Source of the DNA: a virus
Lineage: Duplodnaviria; Heunggongvirae; Uroviricota; Caudoviricetes
DNA: 42,920 nt
IMG/VR virus record: IMGVR_UViG_2541047955_000001
Coordinates: 1 to 42,920 of that record
Strand: one strand, 5' to 3'
Shown one piece after another: positions 1,459 through 11,333 of this stretch (positions within the stretch are counted from its first letter, which is position 1; the number at the start of each line of letters is the position of its first letter). The notes under the pieces are model-generated. The model was not told the origin of the DNA. It searched no databases and worked only from the letters and a program-made list of their open reading frames with translations. Position numbers and translations under genes: made by a program.

Positions 1459-2619
1459 TTACCGCACATTTAAGTAAACCACGTTCTCCTCTTGTGCCGT
1501 ATTTGTGCCATTGCGACTTATAATCGCATCGATTTTGCTCGCGTGCTCGGTGAGATGCCCGGCTGAAAGGTGAGCGTATCTTTGAACCATTTCGAGAGTT
1601 TCCCATCCCCCCATCTCTTTAAGTGCAAGAAGAGAGACTCCGGACTGAACCAGCCAGCTTGCCCAGGTGTGTCTCAGGTCATGGAATCGGAAGTTGCTAA
1701 TGCCTGCCCGCTTTAACGCTCCCTTCCATGCTTTGTTGCTATCGGTTCTCATCTTCCTTACCGCAGCTGTTTTTGTTCCGTCGCTTCGGTAGGCAGGTTT
1801 GGTGTGGACAAATACCCATCTCTTATGGAGCCCCTGCTGTTTTCTTAATATCTGGCATGCGGTTTCGTTAAGAGGAACTCCGATCGCATTGCCAGCTTTT
1901 GTTTCATCAGGGTGCATCCATGCCATTTTCTTATCCAGATCGACCTGTGACCACTCAAGGTCTGTAACGTTGGAACGGCGAAGGCCTGTCGTGATTGCAA
2001 ACATGACCACAGGGAAGAAATGAGGAGCAATTTCTGCAAACAGGCGCTTCGATTCCTCCTCTGTAAGCCATCTGATTCGTCCATTCTTAACGCGTGGTGT
2101 TGATATTTTGGGTGCCCTGTCAAGCCATCCCCATTCAACAGCCATATTGAGAATAGCACGAAGTATTGCCAGATGCCGCGTCTTCGTTCCTTTGCTTGCC
2201 AGCTTTGGTTTATACTCCGGCACTGGCTTGCCAAGCCGCAAACACCTGTCCCGGCTCATTTCCCAGTTCAGGCGATGGCGGCGGTTTTCCATCCCGTCTA
2301 CCGCCTCCATTATTTTTTCTGTTGTTATGTCAGAGAGAATGGTTTCTCTGAAGTGCAACATCCAGAACGATATAATGCTCTTGTCATCATCAATGGACTT
2401 CTTATCCGCTTTCTCACGCAGCCACCGTATGCAGGCTTCCTTGAATAGCTTTTTCGGTGATTCCCCGAGATTTTTTACTCTCCACGCTTCTGCTTTCAGA
2501 CGATCGTGAAGTTCTTGCGCTTGCCTTTTGTCCGATGTTTCAAGAGAGCGTCTAACTCTTGATCCATCTGGCGCGACGAAATCGCAGTGCCACGTGCCAC
2601 CGCGTAGTTTGATTGACAT
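1459..2619 (-). CDS. int: tyrosine integrase, P22 Int type
   Basis: 386 aa; C-terminal HDLRHTWASWLVQSGV...YAHL catalytic region; N-terminus resembles P22 Int; adjacent to tRNA 3' end. Confidence 0.95.
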   Translation of the reverse strand: MSIKLRGGTWHCDFVAPDGSRVRRSLETSDKRQAQELHDRLKAEAWRVKNLGESPKKLFKEACIRWLREKADKKSIDDDKSIISFWMLHFRETILSDITTEKIMEAVDGMENRRHRLNWEMSRDRCLRLGKPVPEYKPKLASKGTKTRHLAILRAILNMAVEWGWLDRAPKISTPRVKNGRIRWLTEEESKRLFAEIAPHFFPVVMFAITTGLRRSNVTDLEWSQVDLDKKMAWMHPDETKAGNAIGVPLNETACQILRKQQGLHKRWVFVHTKPAYRSDGTKTAAVRKMRTDSNKAWKGALKRAGISNFRFHDLRHTWASWLVQSGVSLLALKEMGGWETLEMVQRYAHLSAGHLTEHASKIDAIISRNGTNTAQEENVVYLNVR

Positions 2620-4189: not shown

Positions 4190-4951
4190 TCACCCATCTT
4201 GCTGCGGTGCTACTATTGAAAAGTACTCACACCCTTTAGCCCAAATAGTTTTGATAGTTGTCCAACTGACTGGAACCTTGATTTCGATTCTCCCGCTGCC
4301 GTCACAAGTTTCGCAATCATCATCACCAAAGCATTCCGGGCAGCTTATAAACGTAGTTTCTGAAAATTCACCGGATAGCACACCCTTAGCGCCGTTCTCA
4401 GCGGTTAGTTTCTTCGGCACTATAACCCAACCATCCGGAGTTACCGGAGAGTTGCCATTTATATCGAAGTTTGGCTCTGCGTCCTGAACCAGGAGGATGT
4501 AACCATTCTTGGCAGTATCAAGTTCTAACGCCTCGGTGACGGTGCCGAAATAGCGATTACCTAAATCAGCATCACAAGTGCTTACATCAATGGAAACTTC
4601 CATGCCTTCGATTAATTCTGCCAAGTTGTAAGCTTGGCTTACAGGTTCGGCTTCCAGTTCTGCTATGCGCTTATTTGCTGCTTCCAGCTCATCCAGCAGC
4701 GCCAAGACGGTAGCAGGATTGGCTGCGGCGATGAATTCAGCATTGGCCTGCTGTTCCATTTGGAAATCTTCATCGAAACCGCTTTCAGGATGCGCTCCTT
4801 CAATTCTGCAAATGGGAATATATCCAACAACGTCACGATGAATTAGCGCATCATCACAATCAGATCGGCTCTCTCCATATTCGAGCGACCACACACCACA
4901 CGTTGCTTTCTCTGCCTTTTCACGCAGTGCCTGATAGTCAATCTTGCTCAC
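4190..4951 (-). CDS. Ead/Ea22-like protein
   Basis: 253 aa; central coiled coil LLDELEAANKRIAELEAE typical of Ea22-like proteins; C-terminal CPECFGDDDCETCDGSG Cys motif. Confidence 0.6.
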   Translation of the reverse strand: MSKIDYQALREKAEKATCGVWSLEYGESRSDCDDALIHRDVVGYIPICRIEGAHPESGFDEDFQMEQQANAEFIAAANPATVLALLDELEAANKRIAELEAEPVSQAYNLAELIEGMEVSIDVSTCDADLGNRYFGTVTEALELDTAKNGYILLVQDAEPNFDINGNSPVTPDGWVIVPKKLTAENGAKGVLSGEFSETTFISCPECFGDDDCETCDGSGRIEIKVPVSWTTIKTIWAKGCEYFSIVAPQQDG

Positions 4952-5653: not shown

Positions 5654-5950
5654 TCAGTCATTACTGATAGCGCCATAGCGTGAGCGGTAATTACGCAGGC
5701 GCGGGTCGATATATTCAGGGAAGTGGGTATATGTGGCTTTGCGGAATGGTCGGATTGATGTCTGGTAAATTCGCTCGCGTTCTTCTTTCTCTGCAAGCCA
5801 TATACAGTGGCGAAATTCCTTTTCCTCTTTCGTTTCCTGCGGTAGAGACATTATCCGGTCGTAGTTTTTTCTGAATTTATCCAGCACCTCCGATACGGAA
5901 TTGCCGGAACATCGGCGTGGGTCATCCTCACCATACAGAGGCGCTGGCAT
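5654..5950 (-). CDS. hypothetical protein
   Basis: 98-aa ORF left of the ssb/erf pair, the position occupied by abc genes in P22. Confidence 0.5.
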   Translation of the reverse strand: MPAPLYGEDDPRRCSGNSVSEVLDKFRKNYDRIMSLPQETKEEKEFRHCIWLAEKEERERIYQTSIRPFRKATYTHFPEYIDPRLRNYRSRYGAISND

Positions 5951-5973
5951 AATGGAATCCTTATTTTTCTATA

Positions 5974-6357
5974 TCAGAATGGGATGGAATCGTCGTATAC
6001 AGGAGTGTTCTGCTGGTTACTACTTTGCTGCTGCGGGCCATTTCCTGAAGCTGTAAATCCAATCTTTGCATTCAGTAATTCAAGAGTAATTGATTGACCA
6101 TTTTGCCCCTGATAAACATCAACCCTGATGTTTTCTCCGGTAATTTCCACAATGCCACCTTCAACAAGAACGCTACGGTGGTAATCCGCTTGCGCTCCTG
6201 GCTTGGCAAATACAACGGCGCTGTAGTTTGTCCATTCTTTCTTTTTTGTCTGGCGATCGTAATACTGAACGCCAGCACGGATGTTGAATCCGATATTTTC
6301 CCCGGCCTGAAACTCTCTTGCGGGCTTGTTTAGTCTTACAGTAATCGAATGTGCCAT
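5974..6357 (-). CDS. phage single-stranded DNA-binding protein-like
   Basis: 127 aa from internal Met; C-terminal acidic tail ...PVYDDSIPF resembles the SSB DDDIPF tail; start overlaps the erf stop (TAATG). Confidence 0.65.
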   Translation of the reverse strand: MAHSITVRLNKPAREFQAGENIGFNIRAGVQYYDRQTKKKEWTNYSAVVFAKPGAQADYHRSVLVEGGIVEITGENIRVDVYQGQNGQSITLELLNAKIGFTASGNGPQQQSSNQQNTPVYDDSIPF

Positions 6358-6962
6358 TAAGCAGCAGCTCCTTCTAATTCGTCTCGTCTGATGTTGTAAA
6401 CGTCCTGCGCTTTGTGCTGCTCCGGTGTGCCTTCGAGCATCTTCCACGCTTTGGCGAACGCCTGTTTAAGCTCTTCCACGGTGTTTTTCTGCAATGCTGC
6501 GTCAGTGAATGCTTTTAGAACCTGTTCAGGTGTAGGTGATAGTTTTGATTGCTTTGCTGCTGCGTTCTGCTGATGTTTATGCTCGTCGGTATCTGCATCT
6601 TTCGCATCATCAATGCCGAACAAACCATTGAGGCAATACTTGCGTGCATAAGAGCTTGTAGCTCCCGTAACTTGTGCAGAATCCATTCCTTTCTTGCTTT
6701 CTTCCTCTCGTGCAAGGGCGGTTGCCGTATGACTGTTTTCGCCATCGGTAATAGTTGCCGTGGCTTTCACGTAATACCGATCACCAATCAACACAACTTC
6801 ATCGCTGATTGATAAAAACAGGCCATTCAGTAACGGCTTAACGCCTTCAAGAATGTCTTCGCAGCTTCTGTATTTATATTTACCGAATGAGTTGTACTGA
6901 TTCTTTGGCGCGTTCAGATTCTCCTGAATAGCTGCCAGTCTTGCGTAAAATTCTTTGCTCAT
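6357..6962 (-). CDS. erf: Erf recombination protein
   Basis: MSKEFYARLAAIQENLNAPKNQYNSFGKYKYRSCEDILEGVKPLL... matches P22 Erf as recalled. Confidence 0.88.
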   Translation of the reverse strand: MSKEFYARLAAIQENLNAPKNQYNSFGKYKYRSCEDILEGVKPLLNGLFLSISDEVVLIGDRYYVKATATITDGENSHTATALAREEESKKGMDSAQVTGATSSYARKYCLNGLFGIDDAKDADTDEHKHQQNAAAKQSKLSPTPEQVLKAFTDAALQKNTVEELKQAFAKAWKMLEGTPEQHKAQDVYNIRRDELEGAAA

Positions 6963-7511
6963 ATGATTGTTCTCAGAATGGACACGGCCCAAGGAAATAA
7001 CGCTGATTTAATACTTCGACTCGGGACAAGTTAAGGCATACCCGCATTCCTTCGCGGTCGCCATTATGTCGATACCAGAGAGCTTTCTGCGTGTACATGC
7101 GCCTCTGTAACTTGCTCTCCTTCACTGTGGTTGCAAGTGACATGAATATCTCCTTCGTTACCGATTAATTCTTTCATCTGACGAATGAATTCTTCGTCTG
7201 ACCAGTTATCTGTAAAACTCATTTCCTGCGATACCATGGAAGGTTGATAGCTAATTTCATCTCTTTATTTGCTTCAAGCCACATTTTGGAATCACCAATA
7301 AATCTGGCTATTACTGCTTTGTTTTGTGCAGCACGAAGTATCTGGTGATTGATGGCTATTTCATTGCGCATAATAAGACCTCAACTCTTTTCCATCCGTC
7401 ACGTAATTTACGGGTGATTCGTTCAAGTAAAGATTCATTTAGTTGGAAGGCACCCATGCGAGCGCCTCCCGCGATTGCGTAAATCATGGGTGGTTCCTTA
7501 TGTTGGTTTTA

Positions 7512-8480
7512 TTAGTAGGTTATTTTTGTTGCGAATACTTCGCCTTTTACGATGGCTGTTATGATATTTTTAGCAACATCTTCTGATGCACCAACCTTGA
7601 TAAGGTCAGCAAGTATTTTGTTATTTACTTCTTTCCGGTGAGCTTTATCCTTTGCTCTACGCTCTTCTTCTTCCTTGATTCTTTTTTCTTCTGCTATTCT
7701 GGCTTGCTCTTTTGCTTCAGCCTCGCGACGGATTCGTTCAGCCTCCTCCTGTGCTTTTCTGCGTTCTGCTTCAATTGCTGCCTGCTTTTCTCTTTCAGCT
7801 CGTTCTGCTGCCTCTTTTGCTTCGCGCTGTGCTCGTTGCTCGGCTTCAATGCGTTCACGCTCTGCACGTTCCGCTGCGGCCTTAGCTTCTGCTTCTCGCC
7901 TTGCTGCTGCTTCAATTTCGGCTTTTGCCTTTGCTTCGGCTTCAGCTCTGGCTTTCTCTTCAGCTTCTCTTTTTAAGCGTTCTTCATGCTCTCGCTTTTC
8001 CTGCTCCGCTTTGAGTCTTGCCTCTTCTCTTTGGCGGTCAAATTCGCGATCCATCAAAATCGCTATTTCATGGTCAGACTCAATTTGCTTTGCGAGAGCT
8101 TCAGCTGCTGCCTTAGCTTCTTCTTCGGCTTTAATCCGCGCCTGTTCTTCCTCATAATCAGTAAGAGGCTGGCGTGCCTTGGCTTTCAGTTCATCAAGGC
8201 GATCGCGCACTGTCTTGCGGTTGGCATCAATTAGCTTTGGAATTTCCTTCAGTTCAGCAACAAGGTCTTTTCCAAGACCATCGAGATATGTTTTCGTCTG
8301 CGCAACTTTATACGCCAGAGAAGCGATCTCCTTTCTGCCCTTTGCCGTTGTGATATCAGGCACAAAGGACATAACTTCACGTTCAACCTTTTGAAGGATT
8401 TCTTCAATCTGGTCGGCAGACTGAAATACAGTCATTGCATTTGCTTTTTCAATAACAACTAAATCTGTTACTTCACTCAT
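7512..8480 (-). CDS. hypothetical coiled-coil protein with Glu/Arg/Ala/Lys-rich low-complexity region
   Basis: Track ORF 7512-8534; start at MSEVTDL with GGAGGA RBS; ~170-aa tract of AEAKAKAEIEAAARREAEAKAAAERAER-type repeats. Confidence 0.6.
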   Translation of the reverse strand: MSEVTDLVVIEKANAMTVFQSADQIEEILQKVEREVMSFVPDITTAKGRKEIASLAYKVAQTKTYLDGLGKDLVAELKEIPKLIDANRKTVRDRLDELKAKARQPLTDYEEEQARIKAEEEAKAAAEALAKQIESDHEIAILMDREFDRQREEARLKAEQEKREHEERLKREAEEKARAEAEAKAKAEIEAAARREAEAKAAAERAERERIEAEQRAQREAKEAAERAEREKQAAIEAERRKAQEEAERIRREAEAKEQARIAEEKRIKEEEERRAKDKAHRKEVNNKILADLIKVGASEDVAKNIITAIVKGEVFATKITY

Positions 8481-8614
8481 ATATCCTCCATCAAAAAAAT
8501 TGCCCTCACATCGGAGGGCAAAGAAGATTTCCAATAATCAGAACAAGTCGGCTCCTGTTTAGTTAAGAGCGACATTGCTCCGTGTATTCACTCGTTGGAA
8601 TGAATACACAGTGC

Positions 8615-8803
8615 TTATTCGTCATGCATTTCAGGTAATTCTTCGTATTCGACTCCCCATACGTTTTTACACCAACTAACTCGCTCATATCTTTTACAAA
8701 AATCAGACCACATAACTTGTGTTCCATCATGGTTTGTTATTATTTCTGTAATATCACCAACACTAACAAAACTGGTATTAGAAGCAGTTATTTTTACTTT
8801 CAT
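8615..8803 (-). CDS. hypothetical protein
   Basis: 62-aa ORF in the leftward early operon. Confidence 0.4.
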   Translation of the reverse strand: MKVKITASNTSFVSVGDITEIITNHDGTQVMWSDFCKRYERVSWCKNVWGVEYEELPEMHDE

Positions 8804-9123
8804 TACTTATCTCCAAGAGCTTTTCTGATTGCTGCAAGACCTTTATTAACAGCTCCATACCATTCTGGATATGTTGTCGTTGTTCTATTTTTGGTTTGCT
8901 TAAGTAGTAACTGAAGTGCTTCGAGAAGGTCAGGCGCTGCCGCTATTAGATTGGCATCTTCAATGCATTGAACTTCCTCACAGATTGCAATATACGAACG
9001 CCAGCCTGTGCCATTTTCAAGAGAGTCTGCCTGGATGATTTTAATCTCATCGCCATCCATCATTATTTCCCACTTACCTTCAGTACCTTTAAATTCCATG
9101 TTAGCCTCTGTTGTTTGTGCCAA
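8803..9123 (-). CDS. hypothetical protein
   Basis: 106-aa ORF, protein-like composition. Confidence 0.5.
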   Translation of the reverse strand: MAQTTEANMEFKGTEGKWEIMMDGDEIKIIQADSLENGTGWRSYIAICEEVQCIEDANLIAAAPDLLEALQLLLKQTKNRTTTTYPEWYGAVNKGLAAIRKALGDK

Positions 9124-9138
9124 AAATAAAGGCCACCA

Positions 9139-9390
9139 TCAGGCAGCCTTGTTGTAAATGTTGCAGGTATCAAGTAAGTAATTAGATGGAGCGCCATAAA
9201 TTATGAATTCATCGTTTGTCGGGTCCATCTCCATCTCTTGGCCTATTGCCATTCTTGCGTCAGTGTCATCAGAGGCGAAGCATAAAACAGCCCACGCACC
9301 CATTGTTTTAAAAAGAACTGCAATTGGCTGTGGTTTTACTGAATTTGCGTTAGCGCGAAAATCACAAATCGCACTTTCATGAAACTCCAT
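9139..9390 (-). CDS. hypothetical protein
   Basis: 83-aa ORF. Confidence 0.45.
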   Translation of the reverse strand: MEFHESAICDFRANANSVKPQPIAVLFKTMGAWAVLCFASDDTDARMAIGQEMEMDPTNDEFIIYGAPSNYLLDTCNIYNKAA

Positions 9391-9444: not shown

Positions 9445-9582
9445 TTATTTATCCCACCAAGTTCCGTATCTATCTATCCAGTTACACCAATCATCGACAC
9501 TCCATTTTGTTGTGTCGCATTTTGGCAACTGGCATGAATATCTACCTTCTTTGTAAAGTCGGCGTTTGACTTTCTTGAGCAT
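9445..9582 (-). CDS. small Cys-containing hypothetical protein (45 aa)
   Basis: Not in track; MLKKVKRRLYKEGRYSCQLPKCDTTKWSVDDWCNW...; GAGGTGAG RBS. Confidence 0.35.
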   Translation of the reverse strand: MLKKVKRRLYKEGRYSCQLPKCDTTKWSVDDWCNWIDRYGTWWDK

Positions 9583-10682: not shown

Positions 10683-11333
10683 TTAAGGAAGGTTTGCTAG
10701 CTTGGCATCAACGACAACGCCAATGATTTTACAGTTCCCATTGATTTCAATCATTGGGTATTGTGGATTGAGTGGTTTCAGGAATTTTCTACCGGCATCA
10801 ATAACTAACTTTTTGAATGTCGCCTCGTTTTCTCCTTCAAGTTTGGCGACTACCAGCTTTCCATTACGTGGTTCGACTTCTGGGTCGACGAGAATAATCA
10901 TCCCCTCAGGAATACTCAGTCCTGCCGGGGCAGTCATTGAATCGCCTTTAACGTCGAGCCAAAAAGAGTCTTCAGAACAATCTACCGTTGTGTCGTACCA
11001 GTTATCTATTGCACGCCTATGATATGGCTCTACAGCTTCCATCCAACATCCTGCGCTTACCCAACTAATTAGAGGATACGAACCTCTTGGATCATGCCTG
11101 CTGTGATAGGCAATGTTTGAAAGACTATCCTCTCCTTTCAACAGGTAATCAGGGGAGCACTGCAAAGCCTTGGCTAAGGCCAATAGGTTTTCGCCATTGG
11201 GCTCAGTTTCAGATCGCTCCCATTGGGAAATAGCAACATTAGACACGCCAACCATCTTGCCAAGGGCAGCCTGCCTAATCTTGAGTTCTTTTCTGCGAGC
11301 GCGAATACGCTCACCCATCAGTTGTGTATTCAT
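10683..11333 (-). CDS. c2: C2 repressor (CI analogue, LexA/S24-like C-terminus)
   Basis: 216 aa, near-identical to P22 C2 as recalled (MNTQLMGERIRARRK...IIGVVVDAKLANLP). Confidence 0.95.
   Translation of the reverse strand: MNTQLMGERIRARRKELKIRQAALGKMVGVSNVAISQWERSETEPNGENLLALAKALQCSPDYLLKGEDSLSNIAYHSRHDPRGSYPLISWVSAGCWMEAVEPYHRRAIDNWYDTTVDCSEDSFWLDVKGDSMTAPAGLSIPEGMIILVDPEVEPRNGKLVVAKLEGENEATFKKLVIDAGRKFLKPLNPQYPMIEINGNCKIIGVVVDAKLANLP

Follow-up and report, generated by a model that had tools for sequence, protein, structure and literature searches.

A phi80 Agt-like protein with a predicted charged helix in the early-left operon of a lambdoid phage genome

Recombineering rests on the lambda Red, RecET and Erf systems, which also shape phage mosaicism and are commonly presented as a pair of genes with, optionally, an inhibitor of RecBCD. 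A very large protein family, with more than 5,700 clusters and without a Pfam model, travels with such cassettes in proteobacterial phages, and the gene analysed here, at 7512..8480 on the minus strand of a 42,920-nucleotide stretch of Caudoviricetes DNA (IMG/VR record IMGVR_UViG_2541047955_000001, positions 1 to 42,920; "the window" below), is one of its members. The named homologue in this family is agt (or mog) of phage phi80. In the work of Rotman et al. (2012), gamL is reported to inhibit RecBCD and SbcCD, agt to be its antidote, and the lysogens to be recD and sbcCD phenocopies; a secondary account of these agt/GamL genetics was sought in the literature and none was found. In the phi80 GenBank record agt is entered as "anti-toxin for Gam" and carries the remark "Mog (modifier of Gam)"; the next gene is gamL, annotated "gam-like host nuclease inhibitor... 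toxic without Mog", and after it come recT and exo.

Lambda Gam, phi80 GamL, P22 Abc2 and Mu Gam share with this family the slot at the head of an annealing-protein/exonuclease cassette, and phi80 supplies a link to RecBCD/SbcCD, but a search for sequence or fold similarity between the family and any of these four proteins found none. The window protein co-exists with Abc2 (as Agt does with GamL in phi80) and does not replace these inhibitors. In Firmicutes phages, Mu-gam-like, DUF2483, DUF1351 or Gp157 genes lie upstream of erf-ssb or sak4, and the authors of that study infer analogous functions for them (PMC8093625). The position of the DUF1351, DUF2483 and Sipho_Gp157 proteins beside an annealing-protein gene (erf, sak4 or recT) is equivalent to that of the present family, and the relation is positional only; neither 40 diverse family members nor the N-terminal domain alone matched any of these three Pfam families at E≤0.01, and a DUF1351 relationship was rejected on that ground.

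A full-length agt homologue linked to recombination cassettes

The window protein is a full-length homologue of phi80 Agt (NC_021190, YP_007947961); both are 322 amino acids (aa) long, and BLASTP aligns them over residues 1–322 with 51% identity (E 4e-65). Its gene is a real delayed-early gene, already known and widespread, with a homologue annotated as the antidote to GamL toxicity, and the initial annotation, which called the function unknown, had overlooked this. Agt has the same layout of N-terminal domain (N-domain), ER/K helix and C-terminal domain (C-domain), and is encoded in the same leftward early operon, upstream of an annealing-protein gene. The two differ, however, in their surroundings and in the degree to which their parts are alike: in phi80 gamL-recT-exo is directly downstream of agt, whereas the window has cIII-kil-erf-SSB-like-abc2 (SSB, single-strand-binding protein) and no gamL, and the Agt N-domain is only 41% identical to that of the window protein, while its C-domain is of another type. 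The middle segment and the ER/K region are the more similar parts, with a nonsynonymous divergence (dN) between the two genes of 0.30 and 0.27, as against 0.64 and 0.72 in the end domains.

The recombination cassettes to which the family is physically linked differ in their annealing proteins and nucleases. We surveyed 66 loci, 61 from species-representative genomes and five from annotated phages, with Pfam scans of same-strand open reading frames (ORFs) of at least 140 aa within 1.3 kb downstream and 2.5 kb upstream of the family gene, and with a whole-locus scan of both strands over ±6 kb that used local hidden Markov models. Downstream of the family gene the Pfam scans found ERF (24), YqaJ (22), DUF3799 (9), RecT (7), SSB (7), AAA_24 (3) and Rad52 (2); upstream they found DUF3799 (8), RecT (7), ERF (4) and YqaJ (3), plus cI-type repressors. 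The whole-locus scan gave 96 matches to ERF, RecT, YqaJ or DUF3799, every one of them on the strand of the family gene and no more than 3 kb from it (95 lie within 1.5 kb). At least one such match lies within 1.5 kb at 60 of the 66 loci, at a distance of no more than 300 nt in 40 of these, and several of the six loci that have none are truncated or on short contigs. This linkage spans phages and prophages of Alpha-, Beta- and Gammaproteobacteria, in which the family gene is usually placed immediately ahead of the annealing-protein and exonuclease genes. The commonest order is family gene, annealing protein, exonuclease, as annotated in phages D3 (orf53-erf-exo), JBD44 (gp65-erf-exo) and phiLM21 (p010-ERF-YqaJ); other annotated arrangements are those of phi80 (agt-gamL-recT-exo) and Vibrio phage 1.132.O (erf-x-family).

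Our preferred explanation, which we consider reasonably probable, is that the window protein is a cytoplasmic accessory protein of the phage homologous-recombination module, of the same family as phi80 Agt/Mog, acting by a mechanism that we infer below. The initial annotation had looked instead to the host-takeover and anti-defence genes that lambdoid phages keep in the early-left operon, and one could imagine a general protein of that sort, an immunity inhibitor or decoy, with no specific tie to recombination. Such a role would suit the small accessory genes (ral-type, kil, cIII) that are its neighbours in lambdoid phages, the dispensability and frequent disruption of the gene, and its mosaic domains, which resemble those of arms-race genes; moreover Gam and Abc2, which occupy the same slot, are themselves counter-defence proteins. 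We nevertheless think it unlikely, as co-oriented adjacency to annealing or nuclease genes at 60 of 66 loci in three proteobacterial classes is not expected of a generic gene, and the N-domain is under strong purifying, not diversifying, selection (ratio of nonsynonymous to synonymous substitution rates, dN/dS, about 0.04). The takeover context was thus too vague a description of a family that is tied to the phage recombination cassette across the Proteobacteria.

The phi80 annotations of agt and gamL, and the label "antitoxin protein" in phage HF4s, would fit a strictly dedicated antitoxin for a Gam-like toxin, the two forming a toxin-antitoxin-like pair. Against this, tblastn with GamL found matches at only two of the 66 loci, phi80 and L100, and none in the window, which carries Abc2, and the members linked to GamL have no one type of N- or C-domain in common. 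We regard a strictly dedicated antitoxin as very improbable; as a general role of the family, a GamL-specific antitoxin is largely refuted by the absence of GamL. Abc2 itself is encoded in the window and at two other loci only.

Some features of individual loci may be recorded here. Just upstream of agt, phi80 encodes a 278-aa "zf-TFIIB domain-containing" protein (L082 4060-4896). The family genes of a Pantoea locus (76% identity) and of a gammaproteobacterial locus (32%) also have this protein encoded upstream (L092 4395-5228 and L135 3149-3925). In three Aeromonas prophages (L101, L103 and L104, at about 7100-9100) the order is reversed, with a DUF3799 nuclease gene, then recT, then the family gene, and a conserved protein of about 406 aa without a significant Pfam match is encoded 50-840 nt further downstream (a 246-aa ORF intervenes in L103). 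The DUF3799 (PD-(D/E)XK-like) nuclease encoded beside the family gene of a Thalassospira prophage (L128 8004-9413) has an inserted SAP DNA-binding motif (Pfam SAP, 3.9e-08).

Two conserved end domains joined by a predicted charged helix

Alignments of 40 and of 119 diverse family members show one and the same three-part layout, in which an N-domain of about 110 residues is followed by a middle helical part and an ER/K run, and then by a C-domain of about 40 residues; the corresponding parts of the window protein are given in table 1. The AlphaFold2 model used here was built on the 119-sequence alignment and has a mean predicted local distance difference test score (pLDDT) of 85 (a model from a shallow alignment had a poor N-domain). 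It predicts helices at residues 12-20 and 22-38, a long helix at 46-150, one helix at 162-295, a helix at 300-311 and an extended C-terminal tail.

The N-domain is modelled with a pLDDT of about 90 and has the core motif VPD.TTAKGRKEIASLAYKV..KT.LD..GK.L...K..PK.ID..R...R..LD.L....R.PLT.(W/Y)E, whose residues are invariant or nearly so across the alignments. The dN/dS value cited above, which comes from comparison with a diverged homologue (L070), indicates strong purifying selection. The N-domain profile found nothing in the Protein Data Bank (PDB) below E 0.1, the best Foldseek match in the PDB has E 1.2, and in BFVD only unnamed family members were found. The middle segment has a conserved island, IESDHEIAILMDREFDR, in close homologues, is longer and not low-complexity in most distant relatives, and is followed by a possible hinge at residues 149-161.

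The protein as a whole is 19.6% Glu, 18.6% Ala, 11.2% Lys and 10.6% Arg, and from about residue 150 to 280 at least 90% of the residues are Glu, Ala, Arg, Lys or Gln. By a window-based measure, sequence rich in Glu, Asp, Lys, Arg, Ala and Gln makes up 145 contiguous and 178 total residues (45-55% of the protein), and the earlier estimate that about half of it is of Glu/Ala/Arg/Lys type is therefore a good one. The coiled coil that had been assigned to this run is not supported. The residues Ile, Leu, Val, Met, Phe, Tyr and Trp together make up 6% of residues 150-280 and at most 11% of the a and d positions in any heptad register (39% in the best register if Ala is counted, against a background of 33%), a search of the same residues for a 3.5-residue hydrophobic periodicity found none, and a canonical heptad coiled coil was rejected on these two grounds. 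Opposite charges are instead paired at i/i+4 (52 pairs, versus 23.6±3.7 in shuffled sequences; z about 7.6) and not in excess at i/i+3 (23 versus 24.0), with a charge period of about 8 residues. Judged by its residue pattern and by the predicted model, the run looks like an ER/K single alpha-helix (SAH) rather than a heptad coiled coil, and a helix of 131-134 residues would span about 20 nm if single and straight. It shares dense Glu, Lys and Arg, i/i+4 pairing (z about 7), period-8 charge, few hydrophobic residues and one predicted long helix with the ER/K SAH linkers of myosin VI/X and caldesmon; it differs in being richer in alanine than classical ER/K motifs. To our knowledge, an ER/K motif would be unusual in a bacterial virus.

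Of 183 family members, 182 have an equivalent segment. The longest ER/K-type segment has a median length of 134 residues (range 24-184), and the i/i+4 excess has a median z of 4.75 and exceeds 3 in 87% of the 183.

The C-domain is conserved across the family and modelled with a pLDDT of about 95. In the window protein it reads H-R-x-x-(I/V)-N, helix, Gly, helix, G.IP.V.I.Y and a final aromatic residue, and the family motif, about 40 residues long, is H-R-x-x-I-N...L...G.....AK..V..IA.G.IP.V.I.Y. Its profile has a best E of 0.031 in the PDB, where eight of 16 weak matches are to RuvA domain III, and hhalign aligned it with E. coli RuvA over 29 columns at a probability of 66%. We take this weak likeness to RuvA domain III/UBA as a lead towards a protein-binding helix-Gly-helix module, and not as a result.

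The window protein could in principle be a structural protein that binds or bridges DNA ends, acting directly on DNA and not by way of host nucleases, with Mu Gam/Ku or the long-helix proteins of Rad50/SMC type as its functional counterparts. In Firmicutes phages the same slot, ahead of erf or sak4, holds Mu-gam-like genes (PMC8093625), a long helix separates the two end domains of the window protein, the N-domain has many conserved Lys and Arg residues, and there is a match to the Rad50 coiled coil at chance level (E 0.22). The N-domain is, however, net neutral (18 Lys and Arg versus 20 Asp and Glu), the helix has no coiled-coil seam, and no similarity to Ku, Mu Gam, Rad50 or any DNA-binding domain was detected. 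This makes direct action on DNA ends quite unlikely.

The N-domain profile finds 5,755 clusters at 50% identity (E≤1e-3), 1,886 of them at E≤1e-30, with a typical protein length of 320-360 aa, and tblastn with the N-domain matched 191 phage genome records, which by organism name include Pseudomonas (58), Vibrio (52) and Escherichia/Enterobacteria (32) phages as well as phages of Klebsiella, Erwinia, Yersinia, Shewanella, Acinetobacter, Aeromonas and Sinorhizobium. The window protein matches PHROG 1376 over residues 1-322 (E 7.8e-110); the family members fall in this group, for which no function is annotated, and the same holds for the other PHROGs matched, 17211 and 21365, which are hit because they match the two halves of frameshifted alleles such as that of CUS-3. 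No Pfam match was found for the whole protein, its separate domains or 40 diverse relatives. The Pseudomonas proteins D3 orf53 and JBD44 gp65, also in PHROG 1376 and encoded immediately upstream of erf-exo, have N-domains about 53-55% identical to that of the window protein but differ from it in being longer (354 aa) and in having a middle domain that is not low-complexity. In the portions available of a 2025 survey of lambdoid recombination modules the family is not mentioned, neither "TolA" nor "coiled" occurs, and nothing appears under other early-left proteins (PMC12315714).

The two end domains reassort independently across the low-complexity helix. Three proteins (P0115, L089 and L092) have N-domains 88-91% identical to that of the window protein and C-domains only 24-29% identical, and a fourth (P0117) has the converse combination, with 59% identity in the N-domain and 100% in the C-domain. 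The repetitive middle may be both a spacer and a joint at which recombination takes place.

A possible role at DNA ends

The protein would seem to be helpful and not essential. Its gene is frameshifted in CUS-3, carries a nonsense codon in phiv205-1 and is lacking from HK97; in addition, D3 erf and exo alone promote recombination in a lambda chassis, and the family protein is therefore not required for the core reaction (PMC3945230). If the explanation that we prefer, an accessory protein of the recombination module, is correct, the charged run might form a stiff single alpha-helix of about 20 nm that holds apart two independently evolving binding domains, and the protein would then be a spacer or tether whose two ends bind different partners. 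By analogy with phi80, it may tune or couple the sharing of DNA ends between the host double-strand-end nucleases (RecBCD/SbcCD) and the phage annealing system (Erf, the SSB-like protein and Abc2). The slot proposed for it is that of lambda gam, and of the Mu-gam-like, DUF1351, DUF2483 and Gp157 genes of Firmicutes phages. Tuning of end processing would account both for the neutralisation of GamL toxicity by agt in phi80 and for the gam-like position in the cassette.

Several observations weigh against this proposal. The only genetics, those of phi80, are taken here from the GenBank annotation. Because GamL is absent from the window and from 64 of the 66 loci, the phi80 phenotype may be a side effect and not the core role of the family; moreover, Abc2 or GamL is encoded alongside the family gene in some phages and no known anti-RecBCD gene in others, so the protein is not simply a substitute for Gam. 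Co-variation of either end-domain type with the kind of annealing protein (ERF or RecT) was looked for and rejected, and neither domain type goes with the occurrence of GamL. As for the spacer, sequence alone does not separate a single helix from a helical hairpin or a dimer, the AlphaFold2 model interrupts the helix with a low-confidence break at residues 151-161 (pLDDT <55), and close alleles of 245 aa, in which the spacer is half as long, are frequent, so that its exact length is not critical.

A bolder version, which we offer as doubtful, would make the family an unrecognised, widespread third component of phage single-strand-annealing systems. The protein would be a molecular ruler in which an ER/K helix of about 20 nm fixes the distance from the N-domain to a UBA/RuvA-III-like C-domain and couples the annealing protein, exonuclease or DNA end to RecBCD, SbcCD or RuvB, and it would be the functional equivalent of the unrelated "slot-1" genes (Mu-gam-like, DUF1351, DUF2483 and Gp157) of Gram-positive phages. 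Should the protein indeed tune end-processing nucleases or tether recombination proteins, this could explain the host-range limits of heterologous recombineering and could help to improve such systems, and the protein would be one of the few ER/K single-helix spacers in prokaryotes.

Reading frame, operon and alleles

Table 1. Features of the window discussed in the text, with the basis on which each was assigned
Feature	Position	Strand	Basis or remark
Coding sequence of the Agt-like 322-aa protein	7512..8480	minus	ORF and translation; stop codon 7512-7514
N-domain, residues 1-110	8151..8480	minus	purifying selection, alignments, predicted structure
Middle helical segment, residues 111-149, with conserved island	8034..8150	minus	alignment of close homologues
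ER/K-type charged helix (predicted), residues 150-280	7641..8033	minus	charge pairing, predicted helix
C-domain, residues 281-322	7515..7640	minus	conservation across family; pLDDT
Shine-Dalgarno sequence GGAGGA	8484..8489	minus	read from sequence; 3 nt ahead of ATG
Intrinsic terminator directly upstream of gene	8492..8521	minus	terminator prediction and RNA folding
Spurious antisense ORF, 112 aa	7638..7976	plus	accounted for by composition of real gene
Spurious antisense ORF, 160 aa	7675..8157	plus	accounted for by composition of real gene
Downstream recombination module and small early genes	5654..7487	minus	Pfam and translation
cIII	7356-7487	minus	Pfam Lambda_CIII, 4e-15
kil	7219-7371	minus	Pfam Lambda_Kil, 4.5e-18
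Two small ORFs of the module, listed between kil and erf		minus
erf	6357-6962	minus	Pfam ERF, 5e-44
SSB-like ORF, 127 aa, between erf and abc2	5974-6357	minus	no Pfam match; ends ...YDDSIPF
abc2	5654-5950	minus	Pfam Anti-RecBCD_p2, 3e-61
Ea22-like gene	4190-4951		Pfam
int	1459-2619		Pfam
cI-type repressor	10683-11333		Pfam

The minus-strand frame is the frame under selection. The ORF, its translation and the phase of substitutions all agree on the 322-aa protein: in comparison with L070, changes at codon positions 1, 2 and 3 number 5, 2 and 38 in the N-domain (dN 0.034, synonymous divergence, dS, 0.78) and 36, 35 and 72 in the ER/K region. The initial annotation had already named what would count against it, a real gene on the opposite strand or an untranslated region, and neither was borne out. 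Long ORFs are indeed present on the plus strand; however, 1,000 random synonymous recodings of the 322-aa protein gave comparably long antisense open frames (150±43 and 188±43 codons, with 171 and 129 observed), so these ORFs are compositional by-products, as had been supposed. Since the substitutions track the minus-strand codons and the minus-strand protein is conserved in thousands of homologues, the chance that the real gene lies on the plus strand, or that the region is untranslated, is practically negligible. The start codon is the ATG at 8480-8478; a longer ORF that begins with TTG (to 8534) was rejected because aligned homologues begin at MSE.T.L or a few residues from there, and it runs through the terminator. 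The description of this coding DNA as repetitive and GC-rich needs correction, as the gene is 45.6% G+C versus 46.8% for the whole window (50.7% in the repetitive part). True tandem repeats were sought and rejected: the top array from Tandem Repeats Finder shows 61% matches at a period of 6, and beyond this degenerate 6-nt periodicity there are only a few imperfect direct repeats of 27-37 nt (66-89% identity). Taken overall, the first interpretation was right about a real early-operon gene with spurious ORFs opposite it, and unsupported or too vague on the coiled coil, the function and the general takeover context.

The placement in the early-left operon was also correct. The gene lies between the cI-type repressor gene and int and shares its strand with cIII, kil, erf and abc2; cII, O and P are to the right of the repressor gene, and this order matches the annotated maps of mEp043, Sf6 and CUS-3. 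The module that it heads is of the P22/HK75 type (Abc2, SSB-like, Erf). The 127-aa ORF is probably the module's non-canonical single-strand-binding protein, because its C-terminal residues resemble the tip of bacterial SSB. The terminator, a strong one, has an 8-bp stem with five G-C pairs and a 6-nt loop (stem-loop 8521-8500), followed by a T7 run; it abuts the ribosome-binding site of the gene and is equivalent to the "tL2A" annotated before Sf6 gene 33. Expression of the gene would thus be expected to require N-mediated read-through. The stretch from the N region to the terminator contains small minus-strand ORFs (9445-9582 and 8615-9390), of which one is a DUF5484 member (2.6e-12) and the others have no Pfam match.

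Genes 98-99% identical to that of the window are found in 35 phage records, including those of HK544, mEp043, mEp213, mEp234, IME10, CUS-3 and Sf101, and 530 of 5,426 complete E. coli genomes (about 10%) carry the gene. Sf6 gene 33, also 98-99% identical, is likewise 969 bp long and directly follows tL2A, and the N-terminal 117 residues of its product are 100% identical to those of the window protein. In the comparison of repeat length that had been suggested, close homologues are 245-333 aa long, and every insertion or deletion is in-frame and inside the Glu/Ala/Lys/Arg region, including an 11-residue duplication. In the CUS-3 allele (L153 1501-2470) an extra T after nt 336 splits the gene into ORFs of 116 and 214 aa, a split form that is also BFVD entry A5VWA2, and in the phiv205-1 allele (L154 1501-2469) a CAG-to-TAG change places a stop at codon 30. 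HK97 is without the gene at the corresponding place.

Databases list the gene product as hypothetical, as "coiled-coil domain-containing" or as "antitoxin"; the commonest name is "cell envelope biogenesis protein TolA". The last name, used in RefSeq and several phage records, would make it a TolA-like cell-envelope protein, and its composition does resemble that of TolA domain II, whose long Ala/Lys/Glu-rich helical region is the source of the name. The membrane anchor, C-terminal domain and tol-pal context of TolA are, on the other hand, absent from the phage protein. Its score with NCBIfam tolA_full (TIGR02794), 8.6 bits (E 0.97), is far below the cut-off of 59.45, and in NCBIfam it has only sub-threshold, composition-driven matches, of which this is one; no Pfam TolA domain was found in the protein or its domains; its maximal 19-residue Kyte-Doolittle hydropathy is only 1.03 and falls at residues 293-311, not at the N-terminus; and its gene lies in a prophage early-left operon and not in a tol-pal neighbourhood. 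TolA identity fails by score, domain, anchor and gene context alike and is hardly credible; the name is a low-complexity artefact, the family is systematically misannotated, and the TolA annotation should be corrected.

Finally, in three short chimeric proteins from E. coli genomes (P0138, P0156 and P0164) the first 70-95 residues of the window protein are fused to unrelated tails. P0138 ends in the C-terminal 31 residues of Abc2; cIII, kil, erf and the SSB-like gene would then have been deleted from that prophage.

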